Below, one piece after another: positions 14,200-27,400 of a stretch of DNA of 64,000 bases. A program made the position numbers and the translations under genes. The stretch covers positions 447-64,446 of the forward strand of contig CALHZD010000095.1 in the NCBI GenBank assembly GCA_938040985.1, read 5' to 3'. Position 1 is the first letter of the stretch. The number at the start of each line of letters is the position of its first letter. Below the pieces are notes generated by a model. That model was not told where the DNA came from, searched no databases, and saw only the letters and a program-made list of their open reading frames with translations. Source of the DNA: an uncultured Propionivibrio sp. GTDB taxonomy: Bacteria > Pseudomonadota > Gammaproteobacteria > Burkholderiales > Rhodocyclaceae.

Positions 14200-14973
14200 T
14201 TAGGCCAGGGCGTCCCGGATCAGCTTGACGCCGCTGAAAAACAGCAGCAGGTAGCTGATCTGGAAAAAGGCTTTCTCAGAAATACGCTTGTGCAGCCAGA
14301 TGCCAAGCCAGATCCCGAGCGGCGCCAGCGGCGTAAAGAGCAGCGATGCGGAAAGGTTGCCCGGGTTTAATTGGCCGAGAAAGTAATATGGCGCCAGCTT
14401 GACGTAATTGGCGATGCAGAACAGCAGCGCCGAGGTGGCGACGATGGCCGATTTGTCCAGACGCTGCGAGTAGATGTAAACGGCAAAAGGCGGCCCGCCG
14501 GCATGCGCCAGCGTGCTGGTCAAGCCGGAGAATACGCCGCAGATTGCGCCCATGACCGGGCCGGGCGTTTTCTCGCTCATGGACAGGCGGGCGGCCAGAC
14601 GCTCGCTAAGTGCGAAGTGTTTGTTGACCGAGAAAAGCACGGCGATAAGGCCGACGATCAGCCGGATTGCATTGACCGGAAGCATGCCGAACGCCAGGCT
14701 GCCCAGGGCGATGCCCGTCAGTACGCCGGGGAGCAGAATGCGCAGATGCCGGGTCGACCAGCGCCCGCGCCAGGCATAAACGGCGAAAATATCCATGGCG
14801 CAAAGAATGGGCAGCATGATGCCGGCGGCTTCCGGCGGGGCAATGACCAGCGACAGGATCGGTACGGCCAGCCCGCCGGCCGCCGCGCCAAATCGGCCCT
14901 TGGAAATGCCGGTCAGCAAAATGGCAACAACGGCGACCGGATAAAACGCGAGGGGGACTTCAGGAAGCGTCAT
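14200..14973 (-). CDS. TauE/SafE-family (sulfite exporter-like) membrane transporter
   Basis: About 257-aa polytopic membrane protein with the internal duplication and Gly-rich TM pattern of the TauE/SafE (DUF81) family. Start moved to the Met at 14973. Confidence 0.75.
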   Translation of the reverse strand: MTLPEVPLAFYPVAVVAILLTGISKGRFGAAAGGLAVPILSLVIAPPEAAGIMLPILCAMDIFAVYAWRGRWSTRHLRILLPGVLTGIALGSLAFGMLPVNAIRLIVGLIAVLFSVNKHFALSERLAARLSMSEKTPGPVMGAICGVFSGLTSTLAHAGGPPFAVYIYSQRLDKSAIVATSALLFCIANYVKLAPYYFLGQLNPGNLSASLLFTPLAPLGIWLGIWLHKRISEKAFFQISYLLLFFSGVKLIRDALA

Positions 14974-15583
14974 CGGCGGCGGGCGTGGCTTTCTTCCCGC
15001 CTTCAAGCGATTCGATCAGCTCGAACAGGCGCTGGTAGAACCCGGCGTTGGTAATGGTTTCCTCGCTGATTTTGACCAGCGTATTGCGATCCATCGTCCA
15101 CGGCAGAGAGAGCGACCCCATGCCGGAAACGCTGAAGCCGGCGCTGTTGCCGCTCGATTTAAGCTCGTAATGGGTTTCCTGGGCGTTGGCGTAAATGACG
15201 GCGCCCCGGCCGCTTGCCAGGCAGACGAGATTGATGCCGAGGCGGACGACTCTTTCTGCTTCGGGGCGGAAAATTTTTTCGCCGTTCAGACTCAAGGCCT
15301 TCTCTTCACCGATACGGTAGCCCTGACTCAACAGCGCGCGCTTGCCGGTTTCGCACGCCGCTTCCGGCGTATGTCGGCTGGTATAGGCAAAAGGCGTATC
15401 CGTCGTAAATGTTTCGTTCGCATGGACGCGCTTCTCCGGCGCGGTAGCGCTTTTGCAGGCCGTAAGCGTTAACGCCAGCCCAAGTCCAAGAATCAATATA
15501 GCGGCCTGCGAAAGCCGTTGAAAATATGGATGTTGCTTGTCCCGCGGTTTTTGCGGAAAAAAGATCGAAGTCATGGCATTCAT
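14960..15583 (-). CDS. Predicted lipoprotein (DUF2242-like, assignment from memory)
   Basis: Signal peptide with lipobox LALTLTAC. ATG at 15583 lies 5 nt after the stop of the upstream frame-B ubiJ-like segment. It is in frame with the upstream ORF but has its own export signal. Confidence 0.7.
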   Translation of the reverse strand: MNAMTSIFFPQKPRDKQHPYFQRLSQAAILILGLGLALTLTACKSATAPEKRVHANETFTTDTPFAYTSRHTPEAACETGKRALLSQGYRIGEEKALSLNGEKIFRPEAERVVRLGINLVCLASGRGAVIYANAQETHYELKSSGNSAGFSVSGMGSLSLPWTMDRNTLVKISEETITNAGFYQRLFELIESLEGGKKATPAADDAS

Positions 15584-15587
15584 ACAA

Positions 15588-16315
15588 TCATTGAGAGTAA
15601 GCGCACGTCCGGATTTCCATGCCGCCCAGTCGTTCCAGGCGCTGTTTGAGCGATGTCGTATCCCGGGGCTGCGCGTCGATGGGGCGAGCCAATGCCCCAG
15701 CTCGACTCGTCCGAGAATAAGCGAGGTTTCCTCGCTGAAAGATTCGGCGAAATTCCGTGCAAATGCGCGGGCCGCGCGCGAAACGCCGGAAAATACCGCG
15801 CGGCCGCCCTGCGCCAGCCATCGGACGGAATGGACGGCGATGTCTCCGGCGCAGCGGGACAGATCGTCCCCGACATCTCGGCGCAGATTGCGCCGGCGGA
15901 AAACCGGCGTGTCGGCCCGATCCGCGGCGTCCCCAATACGGGCGCGGGCGGCGGTCAGGAAACCTTTGCCGGCAGGCGTTCTGGAAGCGCCGGGTGCGCC
16001 TGGATTGACGAAGCCGACAGCCGTCCATTGCGTTACCCGGACCATTCGCGCAACCGGCGGAAAAGTGAGCGAGGTGGGAAGGGTCAGGCGGGTCAGGATA
16101 TTGGCGGCTGAAGGCGCTTCGCGCAGCGCATGCCCAATGTTTGGCGCGGCGCGCAAAGCGCCGGCGTCGCTGACTTTGATGTGAAGATCGACAGGCGGAC
16201 AGCGCGCGTACATCGCCCGTCCGGCAAATGGCCGCGGGCGGGCCGTCGCCGACGCCTCGCCAATCTCGCCGGTGGGCGGGTAATTGATACAAGCCAGCGC
16301 GGTCGCCGTCAGCAT
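15588..16315 (-). pseudogene. ubiJ: UbiJ-like (SCP2-domain ubiquinone biosynthesis accessory factor) gene with an apparent frameshift near 15681..15685
   Basis: Frame A (from 16315) gives ...DLSRCAGDIAVHS...NFAESFSEETSLILGRVELGHWLA. Frame B then gives PIDAQPRDTTSLKQRLERLGG...stop at 15588. Joined, they align colinearly with my recollection of the E. coli UbiJ C-terminus (GDIAAE...AEAITEE...EVAWF + 21 aa ...LTKRLEKLE). Position downstream of ubiE and a Tim44-like gene is the usual betaproteobacterial synteny. Confidence 0.6.
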
Positions 16316-16323
16316 GGTAAGAA

Positions 16324-17181
16324 TTACTGAATCTGCTGAATGCCGGCGACAACCCAGCCGCTGTTGCCGTCGACCGGTTTGGTCAGATGCCAGATTTCTT
16401 CAAAGGGCGCCGCGGCGGCTTCGGCATCGCCAAGGGTCTCCCGAATCATGCCGCTAAAGCGCACGCTGGCGATATAACGCGAGCCTTCCTGGACGACTTC
16501 CAGCAAATCGGCCGCAAGCGTCACGATGTCGGTTTGCTGGGGCGTGTTACCGCGCTCGTCCATTTGTAGTTTGATCTCGGCGTAGATTTCGGGCGTGACG
16601 AATTCGCGAATGTCGTCGAGATTTTTCGCATCGTTGGCCGCCTGCAGGCGAACGAAGTTGAGTTTGGCAACGCGCAGGAAAGCTTCGTCGTCAAAACCGG
16701 CGAGGATGTTGCCGGGAGCCGATGGCGTATCGTCCGGCGCCGCAGCCCGCATGGATTGGGCGTTTGCGGCCGCCCCGTCGGTATGGCGCGGCGATTGCCC
16801 GGGAGTGTTTACGCCGGCATAGCGCATCGGCGCCTGCTGCATCTGCCGGGGGCGGCGGAACAGGCGGATAAGGAACATGCCGGCCATCACCAGCAGGATA
16901 AGCATGACGAAATTCGCCAGTTCGGCGCTCAGACCGAGAGATGAAAACAGTGCGGCGAGACCGAGGCCGGTTGCCAAACCGGCGATCGGGCCGAGCCAGC
17001 TGCGCTGCGCCTGACCCGGCGCGGGCGCGGCCTGCCGCTGCGGCGTGACCGGGCGGGGCGTGAGCGCCCGCCGCTGCATACCGACGGAGCGCCCGCCGCC
17101 CAAACGCGCGGCTTCGGCATCGTCGACGCTTGACACGACGGCGAGTAAGGCGATGAACATGGCGGCCAAAAATCTTTTCAT
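16324..17181 (-). CDS. Tim44-like domain membrane protein
   Basis: N-terminal signal/anchor, Pro/Gly-rich linker, TM segment. The C-terminal domain FDDEAFLRVAKLNFVRLQAANDAKNLDDIREFVTPEIY...WHLTKP...GWVVAGIQQ is typical of bacterial Tim44 homologues. Confidence 0.85.
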   Translation of the reverse strand: MKRFLAAMFIALLAVVSSVDDAEAARLGGGRSVGMQRRALTPRPVTPQRQAAPAPGQAQRSWLGPIAGLATGLGLAALFSSLGLSAELANFVMLILLVMAGMFLIRLFRRPRQMQQAPMRYAGVNTPGQSPRHTDGAAANAQSMRAAAPDDTPSAPGNILAGFDDEAFLRVAKLNFVRLQAANDAKNLDDIREFVTPEIYAEIKLQMDERGNTPQQTDIVTLAADLLEVVQEGSRYIASVRFSGMIRETLGDAEAAAAPFEEIWHLTKPVDGNSGWVVAGIQQIQ

Positions 17182-17229
17182 CAGGCGTTCTCCTTGGGTT
17201 TTTTAAATTTAATTGACTGAAAAATTCCT

Positions 17230-17964
17230 TCAAAACTTAAAACCCCGATGCAGGGCGACAACGCCCAGCGTCAGGTTGAAATATTCGACGTTTTCCAGCC
17301 CGGAGCGTTCCATCATCCGTTTCAGCGTCATCTGGTCCGGATGCATGCGGATCGACTCGGCAAGGTAGCGGTAGCTTCCTTCGTCCCGCGTCACGAGCCG
17401 GCCCAGCTTCGGGATGATTTTAAACGAATAGAAATCGTAGGCCGGCGCCAGCGGTTTCCAGATGCGCGAGAATTCGAGGATCAGCAGGCGTCCGCCCGGC
17501 CGCAGAACACGGCGCATTTCGGCGAGCGCCCTATCCTTGTGCGTCATGTTGCGCAAGCCGAAAGCGACCGTCACGCAATCAAAATAATCATCGGGGAACG
17601 GCAGCTTCTCAGCGTCACACTGCGCCACCGGCAATAGAATTCCCTGATCGCACAGGCGATCGCGGCCGCGCGTAAGCATGGCGTTGTTGATGTCGGTCAG
17701 CCAGACTTCACCGCTTTTGCCGACGCGGCGGGCAAAAGCGCGCGACAGGTCGCCGGTGCCGCCTGCCACATCAAGCACGCGCGCGCCTTCGCGCACGCCG
17801 CTGCGGTCGATGGTAAAGATTTTCCAGAGCCGATGCAGCCCGCCGGACATCAGATCGTTCATCAGGTCGTAGCGCGTCGCCACCGAATCGAAGACGCCGG
17901 CGACGCGCCGCGCTTTTTCGCGCTCGGCAACGTGTTCAAAGCCAAAATGGGTTTGTTTATCCAT
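17230..17964 (-). CDS. ubiE: Ubiquinone/menaquinone biosynthesis C-methyltransferase UbiE
   Basis: THFGF...[32 protein letters not shown] and SAM motif [11 protein letters not shown]. Start moved to MDKQTHFGF. Confidence 0.95.
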
Positions 17965-18110
17965 GGCAGGGTCAGGGCGATCGACGTTCATACTTTCGGG
18001 CTACAACGCAATTTTAGGCGATTGCAGGAAGATCGTAAGCCGTCAGGCGCGCAACGAGGGCGATGAGCATGGCGAACAGGCGAAGGCGCGGCGTATTTTG
18101 TACGCGGCGC

Positions 18111-18539
18111 TCAGTGTCTGACCAGGCCGCATTGCGCTGCGGGCGGCTCGGGCGACGGCGGGCATTCGGCCGGATCGCGGCTGCCGCCGGTCGCGGCGAG
18201 GCGGTCGAGGTAGGCTTGCCACAGCGCGTCGCGGTGGCGGCAGAAGTTGTACAGCAGATCCCAGGAATACAGGCCGCTGTCGTGACCGTCGGAAAAAACC
18301 AGACGAAGCGCGTAATTGCCAACCGGTTCGATGCGCTCGATTGCGACGTCGCGCTTGCCCAGTTGCAGGGTTTCCTGACCGCGCCCGTGGCCGCGCACGG
18401 CCGCCGAAGGCGAGAATACGCGGAGAAACTCATGGCTGAGTTCATAGCGCGCGTTCTCATAGACAAGTTCAAGGCGGCGGGTTTTCTGATGCAGCCGGAT
18501 TTCGGCGGGAATCGGCGTATCGGGAGAAAGTCCGGTCAT
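18111..18539 (-). CDS. DUF971 (gamma-butyrobetaine hydroxylase-like N-terminal domain) protein
   Basis: LELVYENARYELSHEFLRVFSPSA...IERIEPVGNYALRLVFSDGHDSGLYSWDLLY matches the DUF971 pattern. Commonly found next to ubiE in betaproteobacteria (from memory). Confidence 0.8.
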   Translation of the reverse strand: MTGLSPDTPIPAEIRLHQKTRRLELVYENARYELSHEFLRVFSPSAAVRGHGRGQETLQLGKRDVAIERIEPVGNYALRLVFSDGHDSGLYSWDLLYNFCRHRDALWQAYLDRLAATGGSRDPAECPPSPEPPAAQCGLVRH

Positions 18540-18772
18540 GGCGAATATCAGTCGGTCGAACGCGGCGGAGAAGGCGGAATGGGCGCAAATAAAAAACGAA
18601 TCGGGCAACACAGCCGGCGCGCCAATCATAACGTAAAACGGTGGTTCCCCGCCGGCGATATAAAGTCAGTCACGCTAAAAACTGCGCAGTTTTACGCCCG
18701 CTGTCTGAAGCCGTCCGTTCCAGTGGCCTGGTCAGTCCGGCGCAGTACGCCGCAATCCGGTCCGCGGTTAGA

Positions 18773-19282
18773 TCAATCGTCATCATCGTCGTCGTCATCG
18801 TGATGGCGGCGATGCTGCGGAAAATAGCGATACCCGCGCCAGCGGTAACCGTCGTACATATGGCGCCCGCGCCAATCTTCACGGTGACGGAAATGGGGCG
18901 GAGGCGAAACCTCGTAGCCCATGTAGCGCGGCGCAAACTCACGCTGATACCAGCTATCGCGCACGAAAAACACCGGCTCGCCGCAGGCGCCGTAATCGCG
19001 ACAGTGACGGCGCCAGTGTCTGGGGTGCCGATGCGGCACGCGCATATAGATTGGCGGCCCGACGACGTGCGACGGCGTAACGATGATGGGATCGGCATAA
19101 ATCACCGGGGGCGGCGGGCGGCCGCCGATATCGATGCGCCCGTAAAACCGCGGATCGCCGATGCTGAACGTAACCTCGGCCTGGGCGATGCCGGCCAAGC
19201 CGAGCAGCGCGGCGAACGCGGCGCCGGCAAGAAATCGCACGGTGCGGCGGCGTGAATGTGGTAAATCGTGTTGCTTCAACAT
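18773..19282 (-). CDS. Small secreted His/Arg/Pro/Tyr/Trp-rich protein ending in HH-D8
   Basis: Strong RBS (GGAGA) 7 nt before the ATG at 19282. Signal peptide ...LLGLAGIAQA/EV. Mature part has PPPPV/PPIY/PPPH motifs, 2 Cys, and a C-terminal RRHHDDDDDDDD. Confidence 0.7.
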   Translation of the reverse strand: MLKQHDLPHSRRRTVRFLAGAAFAALLGLAGIAQAEVTFSIGDPRFYGRIDIGGRPPPPVIYADPIIVTPSHVVGPPIYMRVPHRHPRHWRRHCRDYGACGEPVFFVRDSWYQREFAPRYMGYEVSPPPHFRHREDWRGRHMYDGYRWRGYRYFPQHRRHHDDDDDDDD

Positions 19283-19627: not shown

Positions 19628-19936
19628 TTATAAGGAAGGTTTGCGCCGGAAGGGGAAGTATTCCTGCGGGCGGTCTTCCGGTGACGCCGGGAAAGGCATT
19701 TCCTGGCAAGTGACGCGGTCGACGCGCGCCGGATTCGGACCATGATGGGCCCAGGTAATCAAAACATTGACGCGCGCTTGCTCGCCGCAGAGAAAGGCTT
19801 CGACGCGGCCGTCGCGGCGATTGCGCACCCAGCCGCCGACGTCAAGGCGCAGGGCTTCGGCGCACAGCGCGTTGCGGAAGCCGACGCCCTGCACGCGGCC
19901 TTCAATCAACAGCCGGCAGGCAATGCGGCGCTTCAT
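19628..19936 (-). CDS. Acylphosphatase-like protein with a ~20-aa C-terminal extension
   Basis: Signatures IEGRVQGVGFR and GWVRNRRDGRVEA. The ATG overlaps the TGA of the upstream NuoB-like gene (ATGA at 19933..19936). Confidence 0.85.
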   Translation of the reverse strand: MKRRIACRLLIEGRVQGVGFRNALCAEALRLDVGGWVRNRRDGRVEAFLCGEQARVNVLITWAHHGPNPARVDRVTCQEMPFPASPEDRPQEYFPFRRKPSL

Positions 19937-20466
19937 TGGGCTTCGCGGGCATCCGGTGCGATGGCGGCGAGAATGCCTTGCATCAGTTGCAGCGGCGTCG
20001 GCGGGCAGCCCGGGATAGTGACATCGACGGGAATCACGTTGGCGACGCGCCCGCACGAGGCGTAGCTCTCGCCGAACGGGCCGCCGGTGCAGCCGCAGTC
20101 GCCGACGGCGACGACGAGTTTCGGCGCGGGCGTCGCCTCATAGGCGCGTTTGAGCGCGGTTTCCATGTTTTTGGCGACCGGCCCGGTGACCAGCAGCATG
20201 TCGGCATGGCGCGGGCTGGCGGAAAATTTGATGCCCAGCGCTTCGAGGTTGTAATAGGGATTGCCCAGCGCGTGGATTTCCAGCTCGCAGCCGTTGCAGG
20301 AGCCGGCATCGACGTGGCGGATGACCAGCGCGCGGCCGAGCAGGCGGCGCATTTCCGCGTCCAGCCGTTGCCGGACGGCGGCCAGCGCCTCCTCGTCGGC
20401 GCTGGCTTCGGGCGGCGGCTCGGTGACGATGCCGGTGCGGAGAATTTGTCGGATGAGGGGAAACAT
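19933..20466 (-). CDS. NuoB/HycG/HyfI-like small subunit ([4Fe-4S] cluster cysteines retained)
   Basis: GSCNGCELE, VAVGDCGCTGGPF and IPGCPPTP motifs. Start moved to MFPLIRQ (20466), 2 nt after the stop of the large-subunit gene. Confidence 0.9.
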   Translation of the reverse strand: MFPLIRQILRTGIVTEPPPEASADEEALAAVRQRLDAEMRRLLGRALVIRHVDAGSCNGCELEIHALGNPYYNLEALGIKFSASPRHADMLLVTGPVAKNMETALKRAYEATPAPKLVVAVGDCGCTGGPFGESYASCGRVANVIPVDVTIPGCPPTPLQLMQGILAAIAPDAREAQ

Positions 20467-20468
20467 GG

Positions 20469-22025
20469 CTACAAATCCGGCCCGGAATAAGAAAGGTTGA
20501 ATGATTTGTTGATGAGCGGGAAGTCGGCGACGATGTTGTCGATCACCGCGTGTTCGAGCGCCGGCCAGTTGTGCCAGGAAGGATCGTGGCAATGGCAGCG
20601 GCGGATTTTGCCGTCCGCGCCGGTTTCCAGCGCGACCAGCACGTCACCGCGCCAGCCTTCGACCCAGCCGAAACCGCGCCGGTTGGGCCGGCTGTGCAGC
20701 GCGGCGCGTGTTTCGCCTTCCGGCAGGTGGTCGAGCAGCCCTCGGATCAAGGCCAACGATTCAAATAGTTCGGCAAAGCGCACGGCGGCGCGCGCGGCTA
20801 CGTCGCCGCGTTTTTCGAGCGCCAGCGTCGGCACCATCCGGTCGTACGGCAGGCAGGGGTGGTTGCAGCGCAGGTCCCACGCCTGCCCGCTGGCGCGGCC
20901 GGCCAGGCCGATGAGGCCGAGGCGCTGCGCCAGATCGGGCGTGACGACACCGGTGCTCAGAAAGCGATCCTGGAGGCCGGCGTGTTCGTCGTAGATGGTC
21001 TTGAGACGGCGCACCTCTTTTTCGACGGCGTCACACTGACTGTGTAAAGCGCCGATGCCGGCCGCGTCGACATCGACGGTCACGCCGCCGGGAACAATAC
21101 GGTCCTTCATGAAACGGTGCCCGAACAGGCGGGCGTTGAGGCGCACCCAGTCTTCCTTCAGGCGCATGAACTGCATCAGCCCGAAGGCAAGCGCTACGTC
21201 GTTGCCCAGGTAGCCGAGATCGCTCAGGTGATTGGCGATGCGCTCGCGTTCGAGCAGCAGGGCGCGCAGCCAGGCGGCGCGCGGCGGCGGTGCGACCTCG
21301 GCGATGGCTTCGGCGGCCTGGCTGTACGCCCAGGCGTAAGCGACCGTGGAGTCGCCGGAGATCCGCCCGGCCAGCGTTGCGCCGGCGGCCAGCGGCATGC
21401 CGGTAAACAGCCGGTCGATTCCCTTGTGCTTCCAGCCCATCCGCTCTTCCAGGCGCAGCGTGCGCTCGCCCATCGTTGAAAAACGGAAGTGGCCCGGTTC
21501 GATGATGCCGGCGTGAATCGGGCCGACGGCAATTTCATGGACGCCCTCGCCCGCGACGCGAACGAAGGGGTAATCTTCATTAGCCGCCGGAAACTGGCGA
21601 CCCGGCGTGTCGCGGCGCAGCGGGAAGTAGTCGGCCGGCCAGTTGGCGTGGCGTAGCCAGGGGCGCGTATCCTCGCCGTCCTCAATGCGCAGGCCGAGCA
21701 GGTCGCAGGCGGCGCGTTGCAGGCGGTTGGCGCTGTAGAACAGCGAGGCCAGATCGGGGAAGGCAGGGTTGTCTGCCGACAGCGGCAGGCTCAGGCACGC
21801 CAGCCCTTCGGCCAGATCGAAGGCGACATGCAGGGCAAAGCCGGAGCCCGCATCCGCAGCGCGGTCGCGCTCGTCGCTGCCCCACAGGCTGACCAGCCGC
21901 CGGCCGGCGCGATGGACGGCAACGCTGAAGTCCAGCAACTGCGGGGCACTGACGCTCGCCGCGTAAGCGGCCATCGTCTGGCCGGCGACGGGCGAAAAAT
22001 CAATGGGCTGGTCGAGGAATCGCAT
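20469..22025 (-). CDS. HycE/HyfG-like large subunit (NuoC-NuoD fusion type) lacking all four [NiFe]-ligand cysteines
   Basis: Colinear with HycE-type proteins: VGPIHAGIIEPGHFRF, ERIANHL, C-terminal ...PLINKSF. It reads RISGDST where hydrogenases have RxCGxC, and NLSYSGPDL-stop where they have DPCxxCxxR/H. Confidence 0.9.
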   Translation of the reverse strand: MRFLDQPIDFSPVAGQTMAAYAASVSAPQLLDFSVAVHRAGRRLVSLWGSDERDRAADAGSGFALHVAFDLAEGLACLSLPLSADNPAFPDLASLFYSANRLQRAACDLLGLRIEDGEDTRPWLRHANWPADYFPLRRDTPGRQFPAANEDYPFVRVAGEGVHEIAVGPIHAGIIEPGHFRFSTMGERTLRLEERMGWKHKGIDRLFTGMPLAAGATLAGRISGDSTVAYAWAYSQAAEAIAEVAPPPRAAWLRALLLERERIANHLSDLGYLGNDVALAFGLMQFMRLKEDWVRLNARLFGHRFMKDRIVPGGVTVDVDAAGIGALHSQCDAVEKEVRRLKTIYDEHAGLQDRFLSTGVVTPDLAQRLGLIGLAGRASGQAWDLRCNHPCLPYDRMVPTLALEKRGDVAARAAVRFAELFESLALIRGLLDHLPEGETRAALHSRPNRRGFGWVEGWRGDVLVALETGADGKIRRCHCHDPSWHNWPALEHAVIDNIVADFPLINKSFNLSYSGPDL

Positions 22026-22029
22026 GAGG

Positions 22030-23484
22030 CTACCCGATGAAAGCGACGGCCTGGCGGAACCAATCGGCCAGATAGGGCGGAATCCACACGCCGAGCATGA
22101 GCACCAGGCCAAGATGCAGGAACACCGGCAATAGCGCCGGATTGTGCGCCAGCGGCTTGACTGTCGGCTCGCCGAAAACCATGCCCTGCACCTTATGGAA
22201 CATGGCGGCGAAGGCAACGCTCAGTGCAATCAGCAGAATCGGCGCCGCCCAGGGGTGCTGCCGGATGGCGATGGTCAGGATCATGAATTCGCTGGCAAAT
22301 ACGCCGAAGGGCGGCATGCCGAGAATGGCCAGCGTACCGAGCATGAGTCCCCAGCCAATGGTCGGCGAGCGTTTGAGCAGACCGCGGATGTCTTCGATGG
22401 TTTGCGTGCCGGCCATTTGCGCGGCATGACCGACGGCGAAGAAAATGGCGGACTTGGTTAACGAATGCACGGTCATGTGCAGCAGGCCGGCGAAGCTGGC
22501 GACCGGCCCGCCCATCCCGAAAGCAAACGTGATCAGCCCCATGTGCTCGATCGACGAAAAGCCGAACAGGCGCTTGATGTCTCTCTGGCGGGAGAGATAA
22601 AAAGCCGGCACGACGACGGTCAGCAAACCGAAGGCCATCATGAGGTTCTCGGCAAAGCGGGTGCCCAGCGCCCCGTCAACGAGCACCTTGCCGCGGATGA
22701 TGGCGTAGAGCGCCACATTGAGCAGCAGGCCGGAAAGTACGGCGGAAACGGGCGTCGGCCCTTCGGCGTGGGCGTCCGGCAGCCAATTGTGCAGCGGCGC
22801 CAGACCGGTCTTGGTGCCGTAACCGACGAGCAAAAAGACAAAAGCCAGCGACAGCGTCGTCGGCTCGAGCAAGGTGCGCACGCCGTTCAGATGCGTCCAT
22901 AGCAGCGCATGGCCTTCGCTGCCGAGCATGCGTTCTGCGGCAAAGTAGATGAGGATGGTGCCGAACAGCGCCTGGGCGATGCCGACGCCGCAGAGGATGA
23001 AGTATTTCCACGCCGCCTCCAGACCCGCCGGCGTGCGGTAAAGGGCGACGAGCAGCACGGTGGTCAGCGTTGCCGCCTCCATGGCGACCCAGAGGATGCC
23101 GAGGTTGTTGGTCGACAGCGCCGTCAGCATGGTGCACATGAACATCTGGAACATGCTGTGATAAAGCCGCAATCGCCCGGCCGAAAGGCGGCCGTGATCG
23201 TGCTCGATGCGCATGTAGGGGCGCGAGAACAGGGCGGTGGTGAAACCGACCAGCGCTGTCAGCGCAATCAGGAAAACATTGAGCGGGTCGACGAAAAACT
23301 GCATGTCGTATGCCCACATCGAACCGTCGGTAATAATGCGCCGGGTCAGAAAAGCGGCAGCGACCAGGGTCAGCAGGCTGCATACGGCATTGATCGCGCC
23401 CGCTGCGCGCCAGTGGCCGACCAGCGCCAGCAATATCGCGGCGAAGAGCGGAATGCCGAGAACGCAGCCCAGTTCGACCGTCAT
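22030..23484 (-). CDS. NuoN/NuoM/HyfF-like antiporter-type membrane subunit
   Basis: 484-aa polytopic protein with Mrp/NuoLMN-type conserved stretches (WLPDAHAEGPTPVSAVLSG, SSIEHMG). Confidence 0.9.
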   Translation of the reverse strand: MTVELGCVLGIPLFAAILLALVGHWRAAGAINAVCSLLTLVAAAFLTRRIITDGSMWAYDMQFFVDPLNVFLIALTALVGFTTALFSRPYMRIEHDHGRLSAGRLRLYHSMFQMFMCTMLTALSTNNLGILWVAMEAATLTTVLLVALYRTPAGLEAAWKYFILCGVGIAQALFGTILIYFAAERMLGSEGHALLWTHLNGVRTLLEPTTLSLAFVFLLVGYGTKTGLAPLHNWLPDAHAEGPTPVSAVLSGLLLNVALYAIIRGKVLVDGALGTRFAENLMMAFGLLTVVVPAFYLSRQRDIKRLFGFSSIEHMGLITFAFGMGGPVASFAGLLHMTVHSLTKSAIFFAVGHAAQMAGTQTIEDIRGLLKRSPTIGWGLMLGTLAILGMPPFGVFASEFMILTIAIRQHPWAAPILLIALSVAFAAMFHKVQGMVFGEPTVKPLAHNPALLPVFLHLGLVLMLGVWIPPYLADWFRQAVAFIG

Positions 23485-24170
23485 TTTTCGCGCGCCTTTT
23501 GTGCTTCTTCCATGCGGCCGATGTCCAGACTGTCAAACTGCTCGCGGATCTGGAAGAAGAAGATGGCCAGGATGACCATGCCGACCATGACATCGAGCGC
23601 AATGCCCAGCTCGACGACCATCGGCATGCCGTAGGTGGTGCTCGTGGCGGCGAAAAACAGGCCATTTTCCATGGCCAGAAAGGCGATCACCTGCGGTACG
23701 GCCTTGCTGCGCGTGATCATCATCAGAAAAGAAAGCAACACGCAGGCCAGCGCGATGCCGACGGTCGAGCGCATGATCGTGCCGGAGAGCTGCGAGATCG
23801 GCTGCGCCACGTTGAAGGAGATGATGACGAGCAGGATGCCGACCAGCATTGTCGTCGGGATGTTGAGCAGCGTCTCGACATCCCACTTGACCGACAGCCG
23901 GCGGATCAGACGGTGCAGAATCCAGGGCAGGGCAAGTACCTTGAGGAGCAAGGTCAGCGCCGCCGACCAGTAAAGGTGGCGCTGGTGCGTCGTCACGGCG
24001 ACGATCAGCGTCGAGCAGAACAGGGCGAATCCCTGCATCATGAACAGGTTGATCAGTGTCAGGATGCGCCGCTGCGAGAGCATGGCGAAGCCGAGCAGCA
24101 GCAGGATCGCGGCGCACAGGTTGATGAGCGGCAAGGCTTCCTGGATGGGTAGCGAGGGGAGCGTCATCAT
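23481..24170 (-). CDS. HyfE-like (NuoK-related) membrane subunit
   Basis: 229-aa membrane protein with LAMENG and ELGIALD motifs as in E. coli HyfE (from memory). 4-nt overlaps with both neighbours. Confidence 0.8.
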   Translation of the reverse strand: MMTLPSLPIQEALPLINLCAAILLLLGFAMLSQRRILTLINLFMMQGFALFCSTLIVAVTTHQRHLYWSAALTLLLKVLALPWILHRLIRRLSVKWDVETLLNIPTTMLVGILLVIISFNVAQPISQLSGTIMRSTVGIALACVLLSFLMMITRSKAVPQVIAFLAMENGLFFAATSTTYGMPMVVELGIALDVMVGMVILAIFFFQIREQFDSLDIGRMEEAQKAREK

Positions 24171-25114
24171 GCCCTCAGCAGCAGGTGAACAAGCATGGCC
24201 AGCACGGCCAGCATGAAGGCGGCGCCGAGAAATTCCGGCGTGCGGAAAACGCGCATTTTGGCCGAAAGCGTTTCGATCAGCGCCAGGCAGAAGCCGCTGA
24301 CGGCCAGCTTGGCGACCAGGATCAGCGCGGCGCGGCCTAGTGACAGCGGATCGGAGGCGTCAGGAATGCCAAAGGGAAAGAACAGCGCGATACCGATGCA
24401 CGAGTAGGCGAAAAGTTTGAGGCTGGACGCCCATTCGATCAGCGCCAGATGGCGGCCGGAATATTCGAGAATCATCGCTTCGTGAATCATCGTCAGTTCT
24501 AAGTGCGTCGTCGGGTTATCCACCGGCACGCGCGCATTTTCGGCCAGTGAGACCATGACGAAGGCGACGCCCGCAAAAGCCAGGCTTGGGTAGATGGCGA
24601 CTTCGCGGTTGCCCAGGCTATCGACGATCGTTGACAGCGAGGTCGATTGCGAAATCAGTGAGGCGGTAAAAAACCCCATCAGCAGCCCCGGTTCGGCGAG
24701 GAAGCCGATCAGCATTTCACGGCGCGCGCCGAGCGAGCCGAACGCCGTGCCGACATCCATGCCCGCCAGCGCGATAAACACGCGCGCCAGTGCAAACAGG
24801 CCGACCAGGGCGATGGCATCGGCGGCCGGCGACAGAATCAGATCGGTAGATAGGGTGGGGACGATGGCCGAAGCTAAGGCCATGCAGGCAAAAATCACAT
24901 AGGGGGCGGTGCGGAACAGGGGCGAAGCGTTGTCGGCCAGCACCACTTCCTTGCGGAAAAGTTTGTGCAGCGTGTAATACGGTTGCAGCAAAGAGGGCGC
25001 CGAACGGTTCTGCAACCAAGCGCGGCACTGGTTGACCCAGCCGACGAGCATGGGCGCCAGGATAATGGCCGCGGTCAATGCGAGCATCTGGGCGAAAAAT
25101 GGGTAAAACCTCAT
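24167..25114 (-). CDS. NuoH/HycD/HyfC-like membrane subunit
   Basis: 315-aa polytopic protein of the NADH dehydrogenase subunit 1 / HycD family type (E-rich loop ...HLELTMIHEAMILEYSG). Confidence 0.85.
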   Translation of the reverse strand: MRFYPFFAQMLALTAAIILAPMLVGWVNQCRAWLQNRSAPSLLQPYYTLHKLFRKEVVLADNASPLFRTAPYVIFACMALASAIVPTLSTDLILSPAADAIALVGLFALARVFIALAGMDVGTAFGSLGARREMLIGFLAEPGLLMGFFTASLISQSTSLSTIVDSLGNREVAIYPSLAFAGVAFVMVSLAENARVPVDNPTTHLELTMIHEAMILEYSGRHLALIEWASSLKLFAYSCIGIALFFPFGIPDASDPLSLGRAALILVAKLAVSGFCLALIETLSAKMRVFRTPEFLGAAFMLAVLAMLVHLLLRA

Positions 25115-25118
25115 CGCC

Positions 25119-27146
25119 TCATCCCCGCGTCAGCACCAGCAACGCGATCAGCGTCACAAAACTGTAAAGCAGATAAATGGCGATCCGCCCCTGCTGAAGC
25201 AGCGCCGCCAGGCGCGTGCCGTATTCGACGAAGCGAGCGATCGGCAGATACAGCCAGTACCAGGTCGGATCTTCGACAACACTGCGGTAGACCGGCGCTT
25301 TGTCGAAAGGCGAAGGGTGCTTGCGCGTGCGGCGCAGAAAGACATCGAAAATGCGCCGCACAGGCTGACCGAAGCCCTCGGCCGTATCCTGCATACGCGG
25401 CGTTTGCAGCGGAAAGCCGCAATCCCAGGCCGGCGCGCGCCGGTGCCCGGGCATTCCCTGTTGGCGGCGCTGAAAACGGCGCACGGCGAAATAGACGATC
25501 GGCGTCAATAGCGCCAGACTGACGAAAAAGGCCAGCGCGCTGTAACTGGCGCGATCGGCATTGATCGGCGTGAGCAGCCACCAACTGTTGCTGGCCGCAT
25601 CGCGCAGGCTGACGCCGACCAGCAGGCGCGTGACCGGGTCGAGCAAGGCGACGACCGCATTCGGCAGCAGGCCGAGCAGAACGCAGCCGAGCGCCAGCCA
25701 GAGCAGGCCAAAGCGTTCGAGCTGACCGGCGTCGCGCGCCTCGGACAGTTTTTCTTCACGCGGCTGGCCGAGAAAAATGACGCCGAAAAACTTGACCATC
25801 GCAAAGCCGGCCAGCGCGGCCACCAGCGCCACGGCCGCTGCGACGACCGGCAAAAGCATATTCAGATAACCGTGCGGCAGGCCGGAAGTAAACAGAAAGC
25901 TTTGCAGCAACAGCCATTCCGAAACAAAGCCGTTGAGCGGCGGCAGGCCAGCGGCTGCGAGCGTGCCGATGAGCGCCAGCCAGGCCACCCAGGGCATACG
26001 GTGGATGAGGCCGCCCAGCTTGCCGAGATTGCGCTCGTGCGTAGCATGCAGCACGGAGCCGGTCGACAGGAACAGCAGCCCCTTGAAAAAAGCGTGGTTG
26101 AGACAGTGATAAAGCGTGGCGGTCAGCGCCAGCGCCGACAGATAGGGCAGCTGGAAGGTGACGAAAATCAGTCCGAGGCCGGCGCCGACCAGGATCAGGC
26201 CGATGTTTTCGATCGAAGAATAGGCGAGCAGGCGCTTCATGTCGCTCTGGATCGCCGAATAGATGACGCCGAACAGCGCCGTCAGCAGCCCGGCGACCAG
26301 CATCAGCGCACCCCACCACCAGGTTTCCGCATCCAGCAGATCGAAGCTGACGCGCAGGATGCCGTACACAGCGGTTTTCAGCATGATGCCGCTCATCATT
26401 GCCGACACCGGCGAGGGCGCGGCCGGGTGCGCCTCCGGCAGCCAGATATGCAGGGGCAGCATGCCGGCCTTGGCGCCAAAACCGAAAAGTGCCAGCAGAA
26501 AAGCGCCTGCCGCCCAAGCGCCGCTGCGCGGAAATTCGCGCATGGCTTCGAACGTATAGTCGCCGGCGCCACCGGCCATGACGCCAAAAGACAGCAAAAT
26601 GCCGATGGCGCCGATGTGGGCGATCAGCAGATAAAGATAAGCGGCGCGTCGAATCTCGGCGTGGCGATGCTCGAACGCAACGAGAAAAAACGAGGACAGC
26701 GCCATCGATTCCCAGGCGACCATGAAGGCGTAACCATCATCTGCCAGTAAAACGCAAGCCATGCTCGCCAGAAAGACGTGATAAAGAAAACAGTAGAGGC
26801 CGGGCGGGGCGCTGTCGTCGCGGTGCATGTAGCCGGCGGCATAGAGGGAAATGCCTGCCGCCGCTGCGCCGAGCAGGAACAGAAAAAACGCCGAGAGCGC
26901 GTCCAGCCGCAGATGGAACGGCTGACCGGGAAGACCCAGCGGCAGGATGAGCGTTTGCGGTGAGGCCGCCATGGCCAGCAACGCCTGCACGGCGACCAGC
27001 GCGGCGATACCCGCACCGAGCGGGAACAGGAAACGGCTGATTAGGGTAAAGCGACCGGGCTGCACGAGGCCGATACAACCAATCAGCAGCCAGCCGGATG
27101 CGGCCAGCAGGATACTGTCGATTCCGTTGGAAAATAGCGCGCTCAT
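25119..27146 (-). CDS. NuoL/HycC/HyfB-like antiporter-type membrane subunit
   Basis: 675-aa polytopic protein with WLPEAHPAAPSPVSAMMSG and SSIENIG motifs typical of NuoL/HyfB. Confidence 0.9.
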   Translation of the reverse strand: MSALFSNGIDSILLAASGWLLIGCIGLVQPGRFTLISRFLFPLGAGIAALVAVQALLAMAASPQTLILPLGLPGQPFHLRLDALSAFFLFLLGAAAAGISLYAAGYMHRDDSAPPGLYCFLYHVFLASMACVLLADDGYAFMVAWESMALSSFFLVAFEHRHAEIRRAAYLYLLIAHIGAIGILLSFGVMAGGAGDYTFEAMREFPRSGAWAAGAFLLALFGFGAKAGMLPLHIWLPEAHPAAPSPVSAMMSGIMLKTAVYGILRVSFDLLDAETWWWGALMLVAGLLTALFGVIYSAIQSDMKRLLAYSSIENIGLILVGAGLGLIFVTFQLPYLSALALTATLYHCLNHAFFKGLLFLSTGSVLHATHERNLGKLGGLIHRMPWVAWLALIGTLAAAGLPPLNGFVSEWLLLQSFLFTSGLPHGYLNMLLPVVAAAVALVAALAGFAMVKFFGVIFLGQPREEKLSEARDAGQLERFGLLWLALGCVLLGLLPNAVVALLDPVTRLLVGVSLRDAASNSWWLLTPINADRASYSALAFFVSLALLTPIVYFAVRRFQRRQQGMPGHRRAPAWDCGFPLQTPRMQDTAEGFGQPVRRIFDVFLRRTRKHPSPFDKAPVYRSVVEDPTWYWLYLPIARFVEYGTRLAALLQQGRIAIYLLYSFVTLIALLVLTRG

Positions 27147-27400
27147 TGTGGCGGCTCCGTCGGTGGCGCTGGCATTTCGAGCATTTCACGCAATAGTCTG
27201 GCAATGGCGTAGACCATCAGTACCAGGCCGCCGCCCAGGGCGATGAAAGCTTCCGCCTTCGTCACCGGAAAGTCGCGAAAGAACAGGGGCACGCCGCGTA
27301 TCAGCCAGAGCGCGCCTGAAGAAAACAGCGCAATGCCCAAAACATCGCAGGCAATATAGGCCAGCACTTTCGGTGTCAGGCGCAGCCGCATGGTTTTCAT
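27143..27400 (-). CDS. Small two-TM membrane protein at the head of the hyf-like operon (possibly DUF1418/YbjC-like)
   Basis: 85 aa with two hydrophobic helices. Its stop overlaps the start of the NuoL-like gene (ATGA). It starts 43 nt after the metG stop. Confidence 0.6.
   Translation of the reverse strand: MKTMRLRLTPKVLAYIACDVLGIALFSSGALWLIRGVPLFFRDFPVTKAEAFIALGGGLVLMVYAIARLLREMLEMPAPPTEPPQ

Follow-up and report, generated by a model that had tools for sequence, protein, structure and literature searches.

The sequence analyzed here is a stretch of 64,000 nucleotides (the window) from contig CALHZD010000095.1 of an uncultured Propionivibrio sp., and its subject is an operon of eight tightly packed minus-strand genes, in the order orf85-hyfB-hycD-hyfE-hyfF-large-small-acylphosphatase, which are separated by spacers of 2 to 4 nucleotides or joined by ATGA overlaps (Table 1). 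The sixth gene encodes a hydrogenase-type large subunit in which every cysteine that would hold a [NiFe] center is missing. Translation gave 518 uninterrupted residues and a stop codon, beginning at an ATG at 22025 that lies 4 nucleotides past the stop of the hyfF-like gene and whose methionine is shared by close homologs. Pfam placed a NuoC-type domain (Complex1_30kDa) at residues 42 to 144, in keeping with the NuoC-like N-terminal half described in the first-pass annotation of this DNA, together with a NuoD/hydrogenase-type domain (Complex1_49kDa). No NCBIfam model matched the protein at its cutoff, the best being NuoD with 170 bits against a cutoff of 360. The top HMMER match among PDB chains was Escherichia coli HycE (7z0s_E; E = 5e-52, residues 80 to 516), followed by Pyrococcus furiosus MbhL, Thermus thermophilus Nqo4, and mitochondrial NDUFS2. 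Foldseek, run with a first, lower-confidence AlphaFold2 model (predicted local distance difference test [pLDDT] score of 66.8), also ranked 7z0s_E first, with a template modeling (TM) score of 0.75, and E. coli NuoCD after it; a second model reached a pLDDT of 80.3 and a predicted TM score (pTM) of 0.86. The large subunit retains the hydrogenase/NuoD fold.

The former ligand positions were located by HMMER alignment to HycE, whose segment RvCGiCgfaH was matched with RiSGdStvaY (R221 to Y230) and whose C-terminal D-P-C-Y-S-C-T-D-R was matched with N-L-S-Y-S-G-P-D-L-stop. The four [NiFe] ligand positions in the window protein are S223, S226, S512, and G515, and none of its seven cysteines (residues 77, 107, 331, 387, 391, 477, and 479) lies at or adjacent to any of them. 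The chain stops three residues beyond the last ligand position, exactly at the point where mature hydrogenases are cleaved, and E. coli HycE and HyfG run 32 residues further. The first-pass annotation had claimed that cysteines are lacking at the ligand positions and that there is no C-terminal extension, and both claims hold, as do the codon coordinates that it gave for the two motifs, which are exact by codon arithmetic. Realignment uncovered no cysteines hidden by a frame error; the frame is intact and the motifs recur among homologs.

Related loci were collected by a scan of one genome per GTDB species, which gave at least 593 loci, 80 of them retained for comparison. The cysteine-less pattern was present in the 80 genomic loci, in 75 of 91 diverse full-length representatives chosen at 50% identity, and in all 120 proteins of a set of alphaproteobacterial relatives. 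Within the loci the first ligand position is mostly Ser, with a minority of Ala or Cys, and the second is mostly Ser, Thr, or Ala; G515 is kept in 71 of the 75 cysteine-less representatives. Among 16 close homologs (69 to 94% identity), the motifs RxSGD[ST]T and NKSFNLSY[AS]GxDL-stop are invariant. The ratio of nonsynonymous to synonymous substitution rates (dN/dS) between the large subunit and nine relatives was 0.17 to 0.35, and 118 columns were invariant over beta- and alphaproteobacterial sequences that are each 41 to 46% identical to the window protein. An independent ENA metagenome assembly contains the identical protein, flanked by the same genes. The earlier suggestion that the gene is not a decaying pseudogene is borne out by these dN/dS values and by the hundreds of homologs that share its motifs.

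The small subunit has also been simplified. In an alignment, its residues C57, C60, C124, and C154 fall on the positions that ligate the proximal [4Fe-4S] cluster in MbhJ and HycG; they are present in 77 of 77, 77 of 77, 75 of 75, and 74 of 75 loci, respectively, and the subunit is predicted to keep exactly one [4Fe-4S] cluster. An N-terminal 2x[4Fe-4S] insert is cleanly deleted both here and in an alphaproteobacterial relative, between a conserved leader (MFPLIRQILRTGIVTE) and the NuoB-like core (alignment A3). Such a domain is found among sister proteins that have all four ligand cysteines and no C-terminal extension (four-Cys sisters): one of these, on a Bacillota-like contig, has the same six-gene order and a 240-residue small subunit with an N-terminal 2x[4Fe-4S] domain, and of two others, one has a fused ferredoxin domain and the other a separate ferredoxin gene. 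The small subunits of two distant cysteine-less relatives likewise carry a fused 2x[4Fe-4S] domain. From this comparison, the proteobacterial clade appears to have lost both the catalytic metal ligands and the 2x[4Fe-4S] relay and to have kept one cluster.

A scan of all open reading frames (ORFs) of the 80 loci and the window for CxxCxxCxxxC found no HycF/NuoI-type ferredoxin adjacent to the cassette except in Gallionella (locus L068), and a ferredoxin subunit hidden near the cassette was rejected on that basis, save in that locus. In Gallionella, three genes lie directly 3' of the small-subunit gene on the same strand (L068:5199-9783) and encode a 400-residue 2x[4Fe-4S] protein, an 835-residue molybdopterin oxidoreductase, and a 253-residue 4Fe-4S dicluster protein; it is possible that this set is a dedicated redox partner in that one lineage. 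Within the 64-kb window, no homologs of HypA to HypE, HycI, HycH, HycF, HycB/HyfA, or NuoEFG were found, the maturation genes having been sought there by tblastn with E. coli HypA to HypF, HycI, and HycH. The only match in the search for hyp genes was that of the N-terminal acylphosphatase domain of HypF to the acylphosphatase (acyP) gene (38% over 77 residues; E = 3.7e-4), which is weak and is the one link of that gene to hydrogenases. NuoA, NuoI, NuoJ, NuoK, NuoE, NuoF, and NuoG are likewise absent from the operon and the window. Because the four ligand cysteines and the extension are missing and the window holds no hyp, hycI, or hycF, the complex is, judged by its sequence, not a canonical [NiFe] hydrogenase.

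None of the four membrane subunits (NuoH-like, HyfE-like, and two antiporter-like) is disrupted, and their gene order is strictly conserved. The HyfB-like protein scored 863 bits against NCBIfam NF005086 ("hydrogenase 4 subunit B"; cutoff, 667) and shares 34% identity with E. coli HyfB across 685 residues, and the HyfF-like protein scored 832 bits against NF005045 ("hydrogenase 4 subunit F"; cutoff, 543) and aligns with MbsH (6u8y_H) and MbhH (6cfw_H) over the conserved segment K-x-G-x-x-P-L-H-x-W-L-P-D-A-H. The best PDB match of the HycD-like protein was HycD (7z0s_D; 8e-38, residues 11 to 308). The HyfE-like gene overlaps both of its neighbors by 4 nucleotides. The membrane subunits align over their full lengths with HycD, MbsH, and MbhH, including the conserved segments that bear Lys, Glu, and His.

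Homologous cassettes occur in Propionivibrio, Accumulibacter, Sterolibacterium, Sulfuritalea, Usitatibacter, Paraburkholderia, Burkholderia, Thiomonas, Gallionella, Acidithiobacillus, Leptospirillum, and Thioalkalivibrio, in a methanotrophic mussel symbiont, and in several Alphaproteobacteria. The six core genes are collinear in every sufficiently long locus among the 80 and likewise on Rhizobium and Burkholderia replicons; the arrangement differs in Thiomargarita (L077). Chromids or megaplasmids of Cupriavidus, Variovorax, Paraburkholderia, Burkholderia, Rhizobium, and Azospirillum also carry the cassette. In a neighbor-joining tree of 94 sequences, built without bootstrap values or labeled HydDB references, the cysteine-less proteins form one large cluster, the extension-less four-Cys proteins (motif ERICGxC...ELCYxC-x-DR-stop) lie at its base, and HycE and HyfG fall outside both. 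The complex most likely descends from a group 4 (4f-like) [NiFe] hydrogenase, since the four-Cys sisters share the six-gene order and are basal in this tree and since the literature places the Ehr class (energy-converting hydrogenase-related complexes) beside group 4f; PMC10284858 describes Ehr as close to 4f, in agreement with our tree.

The surroundings of the lost metal site have been partly retained and partly rebuilt. The hydrogenase second-shell residues H171, E176, H179, R459, K507, Y513, and D517 are kept in the large subunit. E176 aligns with Glu21 of MbhL, which we take to be the proton-donor glutamate, and R459 sits in an E-x-x-R-G motif and is presumably the "canopy" arginine. Aspartates occupy positions 225, 276, and 481 in most cysteine-less representatives (Table 1), two or three of them having been gained in this group; the gains of D225 and D276 coincide in the alignment with the loss of the cysteines and are specific to the cysteine-less group. 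We assume that positions 225 and 276 correspond to V74 and L122 of Desulfovibrio fructosovorans, the two gas-channel gate residues beside Ni; the Ile/Phe pair of HycE at these positions fits that assignment. With these gains, the hydrophobic metal site appears to have been turned into a polar, carboxylate-rich pocket. D276 falls precisely on Asp139 of T. thermophilus Nqo4 and on the corresponding Asp of mitochondrial NDUFS2 (HMMER alignment numbering); in complex I, Asp139 is the partner of His38 at the quinone site.

Table 1. Genes of the operon, the two former ligand motifs, and the aspartates gained in the large subunit (positions are those of the window)
Feature	Coordinates	Strand	Description
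orf85	27143..27400	-	85 residues, hydrophobic, two predicted membrane helices; first gene of the operon
HyfB/HyqB-like antiporter-type membrane subunit (NuoL family)	25119..27146	-	675 residues; Pfam Proton_antipo_M, 1.5e-53
HycD/HyqC-like membrane subunit (NuoH family)	24167..25114	-	315 residues; Pfam NADHdh, 8e-37
HyfE/HyqE-like membrane subunit	23481..24170	-	229 residues; NCBIfam NF008556 "hydrogenase 4 membrane subunit," 3e-23, below cutoff
HyfF/HyqF-like antiporter-type membrane subunit (NuoM/N family)	22030..23484	-	484 residues; NCBIfam
Large subunit (NuoC-NuoD fusion, HycE/HyqG-like)	20469..22025	-	518 residues; sequence comparison and AlphaFold2 model
Small subunit (HycG/HyqI/NuoB-like)	19933..20466	-	177 residues; one predicted [4Fe-4S] site, no ferredoxin domain; Pfam Oxidored_q6, 1.8e-31
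Acylphosphatase	19628..19936	-	102 residues; last gene of the operon; Pfam Acylphosphatase, 8.8e-21
N-terminal motif R221-I-S223-G-D225-S226-T227	21345..21365	-	site of hydrogenase RxCGxC by HycE alignment
C-terminal motif N510-L-S512-Y-S-G515-P-D-L518-stop	20472..20498	-	site of DPCxxCxx(H/R); no extension
D225			Asp in 70/75 cysteine-less representatives; Val/Ala in four-Cys sisters; Ile in HycE; Leu in NuoCD
D276	21198..21200	-	Asp in 67/75 cysteine-less representatives; Gly in 15/16 four-Cys sisters; Phe in HycE/HyfG; Asp in NuoCD
D481			Asp in 56/75 cysteine-less representatives; Ser in four-Cys sisters; Ala in HycE; Thr in NuoCD

The assignment to the Ehr class made in the first-pass annotation agrees with what was found: the large subunit is homologous to group 4 and has no CxxC, the operon encodes NuoB-, NuoH-, and antiporter-like proteins, and the protein groups beside the extension-less four-Cys hydrogenases and not with HycE/HyfG. 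Ehr was defined by Coppi 2005 (Geobacter EhrL/EhrS) and Marreiros et al. 2013, as cited in PMC6349859, PMC7894505, and PMC10284858. As quoted in PMC6349859 and PMC10284858, its members are related to group 4 and lack the Ni- and Fe-coordinating residues, and the same is true of the window large subunit. To the NuoB-, NuoD-, NuoH-, and Mrp antiporter-like subunits of Ehr correspond, in the window operon, an Oxidored_q6, an NADHdh, and two Proton_antipo_M proteins. Ehr is, however, a broad and heterogeneous class, and other cysteine-less members that were sampled keep the 2x[4Fe-4S] small-subunit domain that the window clade does not have.

Within this class the closest described system is Hyq, the "endo-hydrogenase" of Azorhizobium caulinodans and other alphaproteobacterial diazotrophs (Ng 2009, PMC2650096; Sprecher 2012, PMC3357923). 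The hyqRBCEFGI genes are described there as a core form of complex I with six subunits. HyqG is a 504-residue NuoC-NuoD fusion without either CxxC motif, as its authors noted, and HyqI has Cys-55, -58, -112, and -152 for one N2-type [4Fe-4S] cluster (PMC3357923). The gene order B-C-E-F-G-I is common to hyq and the window cassette, both large subunits are NuoC-NuoD fusions without CxxC (about 504 residues in HyqG), neither system has equivalents of HyfA, HyfD, or HyfH, and both small subunits have four cysteines for one N2-type cluster. The comparison was made through the Rhizobium leguminosarum ortholog, to which A. caulinodans HyqG was linked by matching residue numbering; R. leguminosarum is among the genera listed as carrying hyq in that literature. 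Its locus reads HTH-regulator-hyfB-nuoH-hyfE-hyfF-"NuoC"(504 residues)-"NuoB"(177 residues), where HTH stands for helix-turn-helix. Compared over its full length, the large subunit of R. leguminosarum shares 45% identity with the window protein, and its two motifs read R-T-S-G-D-S and N-C-S-Y-S-G-H-D-L-stop. Three cysteines of HyqG (C258, C491, and C497) are described in PMC3357923 as completely conserved. In the pairwise alignment with R. leguminosarum HyqG they correspond to G274, I505, and L511 of the window protein; in the region examined for these Hyq-specific cysteines, the 120-protein alphaproteobacterial set reads ...PLCNKSFNCSYSGHDL. The window operon further differs from hyq in having no hyqR gene, orf85 preceding the hyfB-like gene instead, and no sigma-54-like site upstream (a weak test), and its clade has in addition the 85-residue membrane ORF, a translationally coupled acylphosphatase, and a betaproteobacterial (Rhodocyclales-type) host. 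Because the Hyq cysteines, hyqR, and the sigma-54-like site are missing, the window complex is a Hyq-like member of the Ehr class and not a strict member of the alphaproteobacterial Hyq family. The class itself is already known, and the window complex is the betaproteobacterial counterpart of hyqBCEFGI; the details that are new are the loss of the ferredoxin domain, the paired Asp gains, the absence of the Hyq cysteines, and the clade-specific orf85 and acylphosphatase.

The same six-gene cassette was called a group 4 hydrogenase in Acidithiobacillus ferrooxidans in 2008 (hyfBCEFGI, AFE2149-54), and in 2020 its catalytic subunit was flagged as "non-hydrogenase" (PMC7735108). The Acidithiobacillus loci sampled here (L059 to L062) show 54 to 55% identity, with the genes collinear; unlike the window, they are flanked by an HTH-cupin regulator and defense or mobile genes and have neither orf85 nor an acylphosphatase. 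The extension-less four-Cys sisters, which are probably the "Ehf" proteins of HydDB group 4f, are 33 to 40% identical, are also fused NuoC-NuoD proteins (ending in ...C-x-D-R-stop), and show the same hyfB-hycD-hyfE-hyfF-large-small order; they differ in having all four cysteines, Gly at the position of D276, Val or Ala at that of D225, and a 2x[4Fe-4S] ferredoxin domain or gene together with the small subunit. E. coli hydrogenases 3 and 4 (HycE/HyfG; formate hydrogenlyase [FHL], PDB 7Z0S) provide the best solved-structure match, at 28 to 29% identity, and the membrane subunits are homologous to HyfB, HyfC, HyfE, and HyfF. Unlike the window complex, these enzymes have the four cysteines and the 32-residue extension, as well as HycF/HyfH, HycB/HyfA, HycH, HycI, and a formate dehydrogenase partner. 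The Q-module of complex I (NuoB, NuoCD, and NuoH) resembles the window complex in its metal-free NuoD-type subunit, in the single N2-type cluster in its NuoB homolog, and in the Asp at the position of Asp139, whereas the window complex lacks His38 and Tyr87 as well as NuoA, J, K, I, E, F, and G, and its NuoH homolog is of the hydrogenase type. P. furiosus MBS/Mbx (PDB 6U8Y) is likewise derived from a hydrogenase and has degenerate NiFe ligands and antiporter modules (MbsL match, 2e-19; MbsH, 5e-36), but it is far more distant, with 13 subunits, a full Mrp module, and a ferredoxin-type subunit. MbsL retains two of the four cysteines.

The reading that we favor, if tentatively, is that the operon specifies a pared-down relative of complex I, an Ehr/Hyq-type redox complex that translocates ions and has six core subunits and no NiFe(Cys)4 site. 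In this scheme the single N2-like cluster would exchange electrons with a small molecule bound in the polar, carboxylate-lined pocket left by the NiFe site, at the interface of the large, small, and HycD-like subunits, where complex I holds the quinone head group. D276, the equivalent of Asp139, may form a redox-linked protonation site together with E176 and D225, and the resulting change in charge would travel via the HycD-like and HyfE-like subunits to both antiporter-like subunits, so that H+ (or Na+) would cross the membrane in a process that would be reversible. A quinone or quinol would be the most plausible ligand of the pocket and the most economical one, because the pocket lies at the quinone site of complex I and an Asp has been gained at the position of Asp139. 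The sampled hosts are mostly Proteobacteria, which generally respire with quinone-based chains. The operon contains no gene for a cytoplasmic redox partner; such a partner would have to bind the small subunit directly.

Several observations weigh against this reading. The canonical quinone ligands are missing, since His38 of complex I aligns with I175 and Tyr87 with G224. The NuoH-like subunit matched ND1/NdhA of complex I at just about 1e-6, compared with 8e-38 for HycD, and no open quinone tunnel is known from the hydrogenase-type NuoH homologs of Mbh and FHL. The AlphaFold2 model is unreliable exactly at the pocket, where its pLDDT falls below 50 (residues 149 to 199 and 495 to 518). The invariant [4Fe-4S] cluster could be purely structural, and the redox partner is purely hypothetical because no electron-input module (HycF/NuoI, HycB, or NuoEFG) was found in or beside the cassette in the 80 loci and the window, the ferredoxin of Gallionella aside. 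Finally, the genetics of A. caulinodans points to H2 as a substrate (PMC2650096 and PMC3357923).

A rival reading is that the complex has become a redox-independent or redox-gated cation or proton transporter for pH or ion homeostasis, in the manner of an Mrp-like antiporter module, with the hydrogenase arm serving as a structural or pH-sensing cap and the cluster as a structural element. We regard this as unlikely, although a number of features fit it. No redox partner gene is conserved in the neighborhood. The redox parts appear to have been shed stepwise, with the 2x[4Fe-4S] domain kept by the sisters and the distant cysteine-less relatives and with neither domain nor metal ligands left in the window clade, and carboxylates now abound at the former metal site. 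Acidophiles and soil bacteria that tolerate acid commonly have the cassette (Acidithiobacillus, Leptospirillum, Thiomonas, and Paraburkholderia). In Methylocystis, all genes of a "group 4f [NiFe]-hydrogenase" were induced at pH 5, with log2 fold changes of +4.2 to +4.5 (16- to 23-fold), according to a 2026 preprint (10.1101/2025.08.29.672306). The motif quoted there, PLHQIPVGP...ANGExVVRL...AARVS, fits the cysteine-less alphaproteobacterial subfamily (R-V-S-G-D): LHQIPVGP is found in 92 of the 120 alphaproteobacterial proteins, and the protein at L076 (9872-11380) reads SLHQIPVGP...ANGEAVVRL...AGRVSGD. Going by this quoted motif, the acid-induced "hydrogenase" is probably a Hyq/Ehr complex and an ortholog of the one in the window.

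In three separate lineages, the cassette has beside it, in the same orientation, a gene for a SulP anion transporter (Sulfate_transp plus STAS; assigned by NCBIfam to generic SulP and not to BicA or DauA), which also fits ion transport. These lineages are Sulfuritalea/Rhodocyclaceae, the methanotrophic Bathymodiolus symbiont, and Thiomargarita, where the gene occurs together with TauE. The SulP gene lies 5' of the cassette in loci L016, L020, L024, L029, L031, L033, L034, L036, L038 to L040, L045, L048, and L056 and is also found at L070:2887-4551 and L077:6150-7907. This association is recurrent but not universal, and clustering of flanking ORFs as a source of clues to the substrate returned just lineage-specific partners (SulP, His-kinase/response regulators, MetG, HTH regulators, and the molybdopterin oxidoreductase of Gallionella). 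Against a transporter that has given up redox chemistry stand the four invariant cluster cysteines and the conservation of E176, R459, H171, and H179 in the second shell, which goes beyond what a passive cap would need. No peripheral arm of the complex I type is known to work without redox chemistry, and the hyq phenotypes of A. caulinodans concern nitrogen fixation and H2 and not ion homeostasis.

These phenotypes speak for a different proposal, namely, that the complex is a non-canonical hydrogenase, as claimed for Hyq, which activates H2 at a site without the four classical cysteines. Work of the Ludwig laboratory (PMC2650096 and PMC3357923) found that hyq is NifA dependent, that its deletion slows diazotrophic growth, and that it is involved in H2 recycling in vivo; in a hupSL mutant, which evolved very large amounts of H2 under microaerobic conditions, about 80% of this evolution depended on hyq, even in a nifK background. 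The window cassette is an orthologous gene set and retains the proton-relay Glu (E176) and Arg459. However, no cysteine is found at or adjacent to any ligand position, the HyqG cysteines are replaced by G274, I505, and L511, Asp225 and Asp276 at the positions that we take to be the gas-channel gates (V74/L122) would make the site hydrophilic, and the window holds no hyp or protease genes. In the words of the Hyq authors themselves, it is "uncertain, if not unlikely" that HyqG has a NiFe site, and the evidence for H2 (PMC3357923) is from in vivo experiments in which the deletion also took the regulator hyqR, with no enzyme purified. The cluster of At. ferrooxidans was not detected in H2-grown cells and is classed by HydDB as non-hydrogenase, according to PMC7735108. 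We hold it to be highly improbable that the complex is a hydrogenase of this kind, and slightly more so that H2 is truly turned over at a site free of cysteine thiolates, lined by Asp225, Asp276, Glu176, and Arg459, and placed beside a single [4Fe-4S] cluster; if this were nonetheless the case, the enzyme would represent a hydrogenase class with new chemistry, built into a minimal complex I. The statement in the first-pass annotation that the protein cannot be a hydrogenase thus stands for a canonical [NiFe] enzyme, whereas H2 turnover is better called unlikely than excluded, given the hyq genetics. Its remark that the role of the class is unknown overlooked the in vivo H2 claims of the Hyq literature, which are unverified, no enzyme having been purified.

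A decaying hydrogenase pseudogene, or an assembly or frame artifact concealing cysteines, has in its favor only that the catalytic residues are gone, and we give it next to no credence and rejected it, given the intact 518-codon frame, the tight operon with its 4-nucleotide overlaps, the identical protein in an independent assembly, the same substitutions in hundreds of genomes, and the constraint described above (dN/dS and invariant columns). The rest of our expectation falls to some explanation other than these.

The family is still regularly given the label of a [NiFe] hydrogenase in annotation, and some papers interpret it in this way; further names in use are "hydrogenase 4," "NuoC," and "group 4f," and this misannotation inflates estimates of H2 metabolism in Accumulibacter and Propionivibrio wastewater bacteria, acidophiles, rhizobia, Burkholderia, and methanotrophs. 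Public names of the large subunit include "NADH-quinone oxidoreductase subunit C," "hydrogenase large subunit," "nickel-dependent hydrogenase large subunit," "Ni,Fe-hydrogenase III large subunit," and "hydrogenase expression protein HypE," and the small and HyfE-like subunits are at times annotated as "formate hydrogenlyase"; such inconsistencies were seen in homologs P0018, P0026, P0292, P0299, and P0377 and in loci L094 and L095. With six subunits and one predicted iron-sulfur cluster, the complex is the smallest known relative of complex I, and the reaction that drives it bears on the evolution of complex I from hydrogenases and on how charge at the Q or NiFe site is coupled to pumping. It would be worthwhile to settle how a cysteine-less sequence can be squared with the H2 evolution reported to depend on hyq, and the question is testable because the cassette occurs in the genetically tractable strains Cupriavidus metallidurans CH34, Paraburkholderia phymatum STM815, Burkholderia pyrrocinia, and R. 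leguminosarum.

The two ends of the operon are specific to the closest clade. The stop codon of orf85 overlaps the ATG of the hyfB-like gene as ATGA, and orf85 was also called as a gene on the identical ENA contig; Pfam and NCBIfam searches with its product gave no match. Among the 80 loci, homologs were found only in the Propionivibrio/Accumulibacter loci L002, L015, and L018, and the idea that orf85 is a universal seventh subunit was rejected because a small hydrophobic ORF 5' of hyfB is limited to this clade. At the other end, the ATG of the acylphosphatase gene overlaps the stop of the small-subunit gene as ATGA, an arrangement that suggests translational coupling. The gene is present in 7 of the 80 loci, all of them in the Propionivibrio/Accumulibacter clade (L001, L002, L003, L014, L015, L018, and L057), and was rejected as a core component for that reason. 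The stop codon of metG lies only about 43 nucleotides upstream of orf85, and because of this short distance the operon may be read through from metG; a search of the minus strand upstream of the operon for a TGGCAC-N5-TTGCA-like sigma-54 site, which is a weak test, found none, and scanning the operon for promoters and terminators gave no informative signal. Small DNA-binding proteins precede the cassette in a lineage-dependent manner, either an XRE-type HTH protein, which may carry a cupin domain and takes the position of hyqR, or an ORF resembling ribbon-helix-helix proteins; they are encoded at L059:4272-4817, L076:4466-4768, and L094:2472-2861 and just 5' of hyfB in L010, L012, L013, and L066. 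In the window operon, neither an HTH-type nor a ribbon-helix-helix-like ORF precedes the cassette.

Downstream of the operon, a minus-strand ORF at 18773-19282 encodes 169 residues with a signal-peptide-like N terminus, a body rich in Arg, His, Tyr, and Pro, and a C-terminal run of eight Asp; it had no homolog among the 80 related loci, and on the ENA contig the gene caller instead placed there a 194-residue ORF on the opposite strand, which had no Pfam match. Further on, the minus strand at 14200-18629 encodes, by Pfam on the identical ENA contig (L084), GBBH-like_N, UbiE methyltransferase, Tim44-like, and DUF2242 proteins and a TauE/SafE-family permease, which looks like a ubiquinone-biosynthesis neighborhood.

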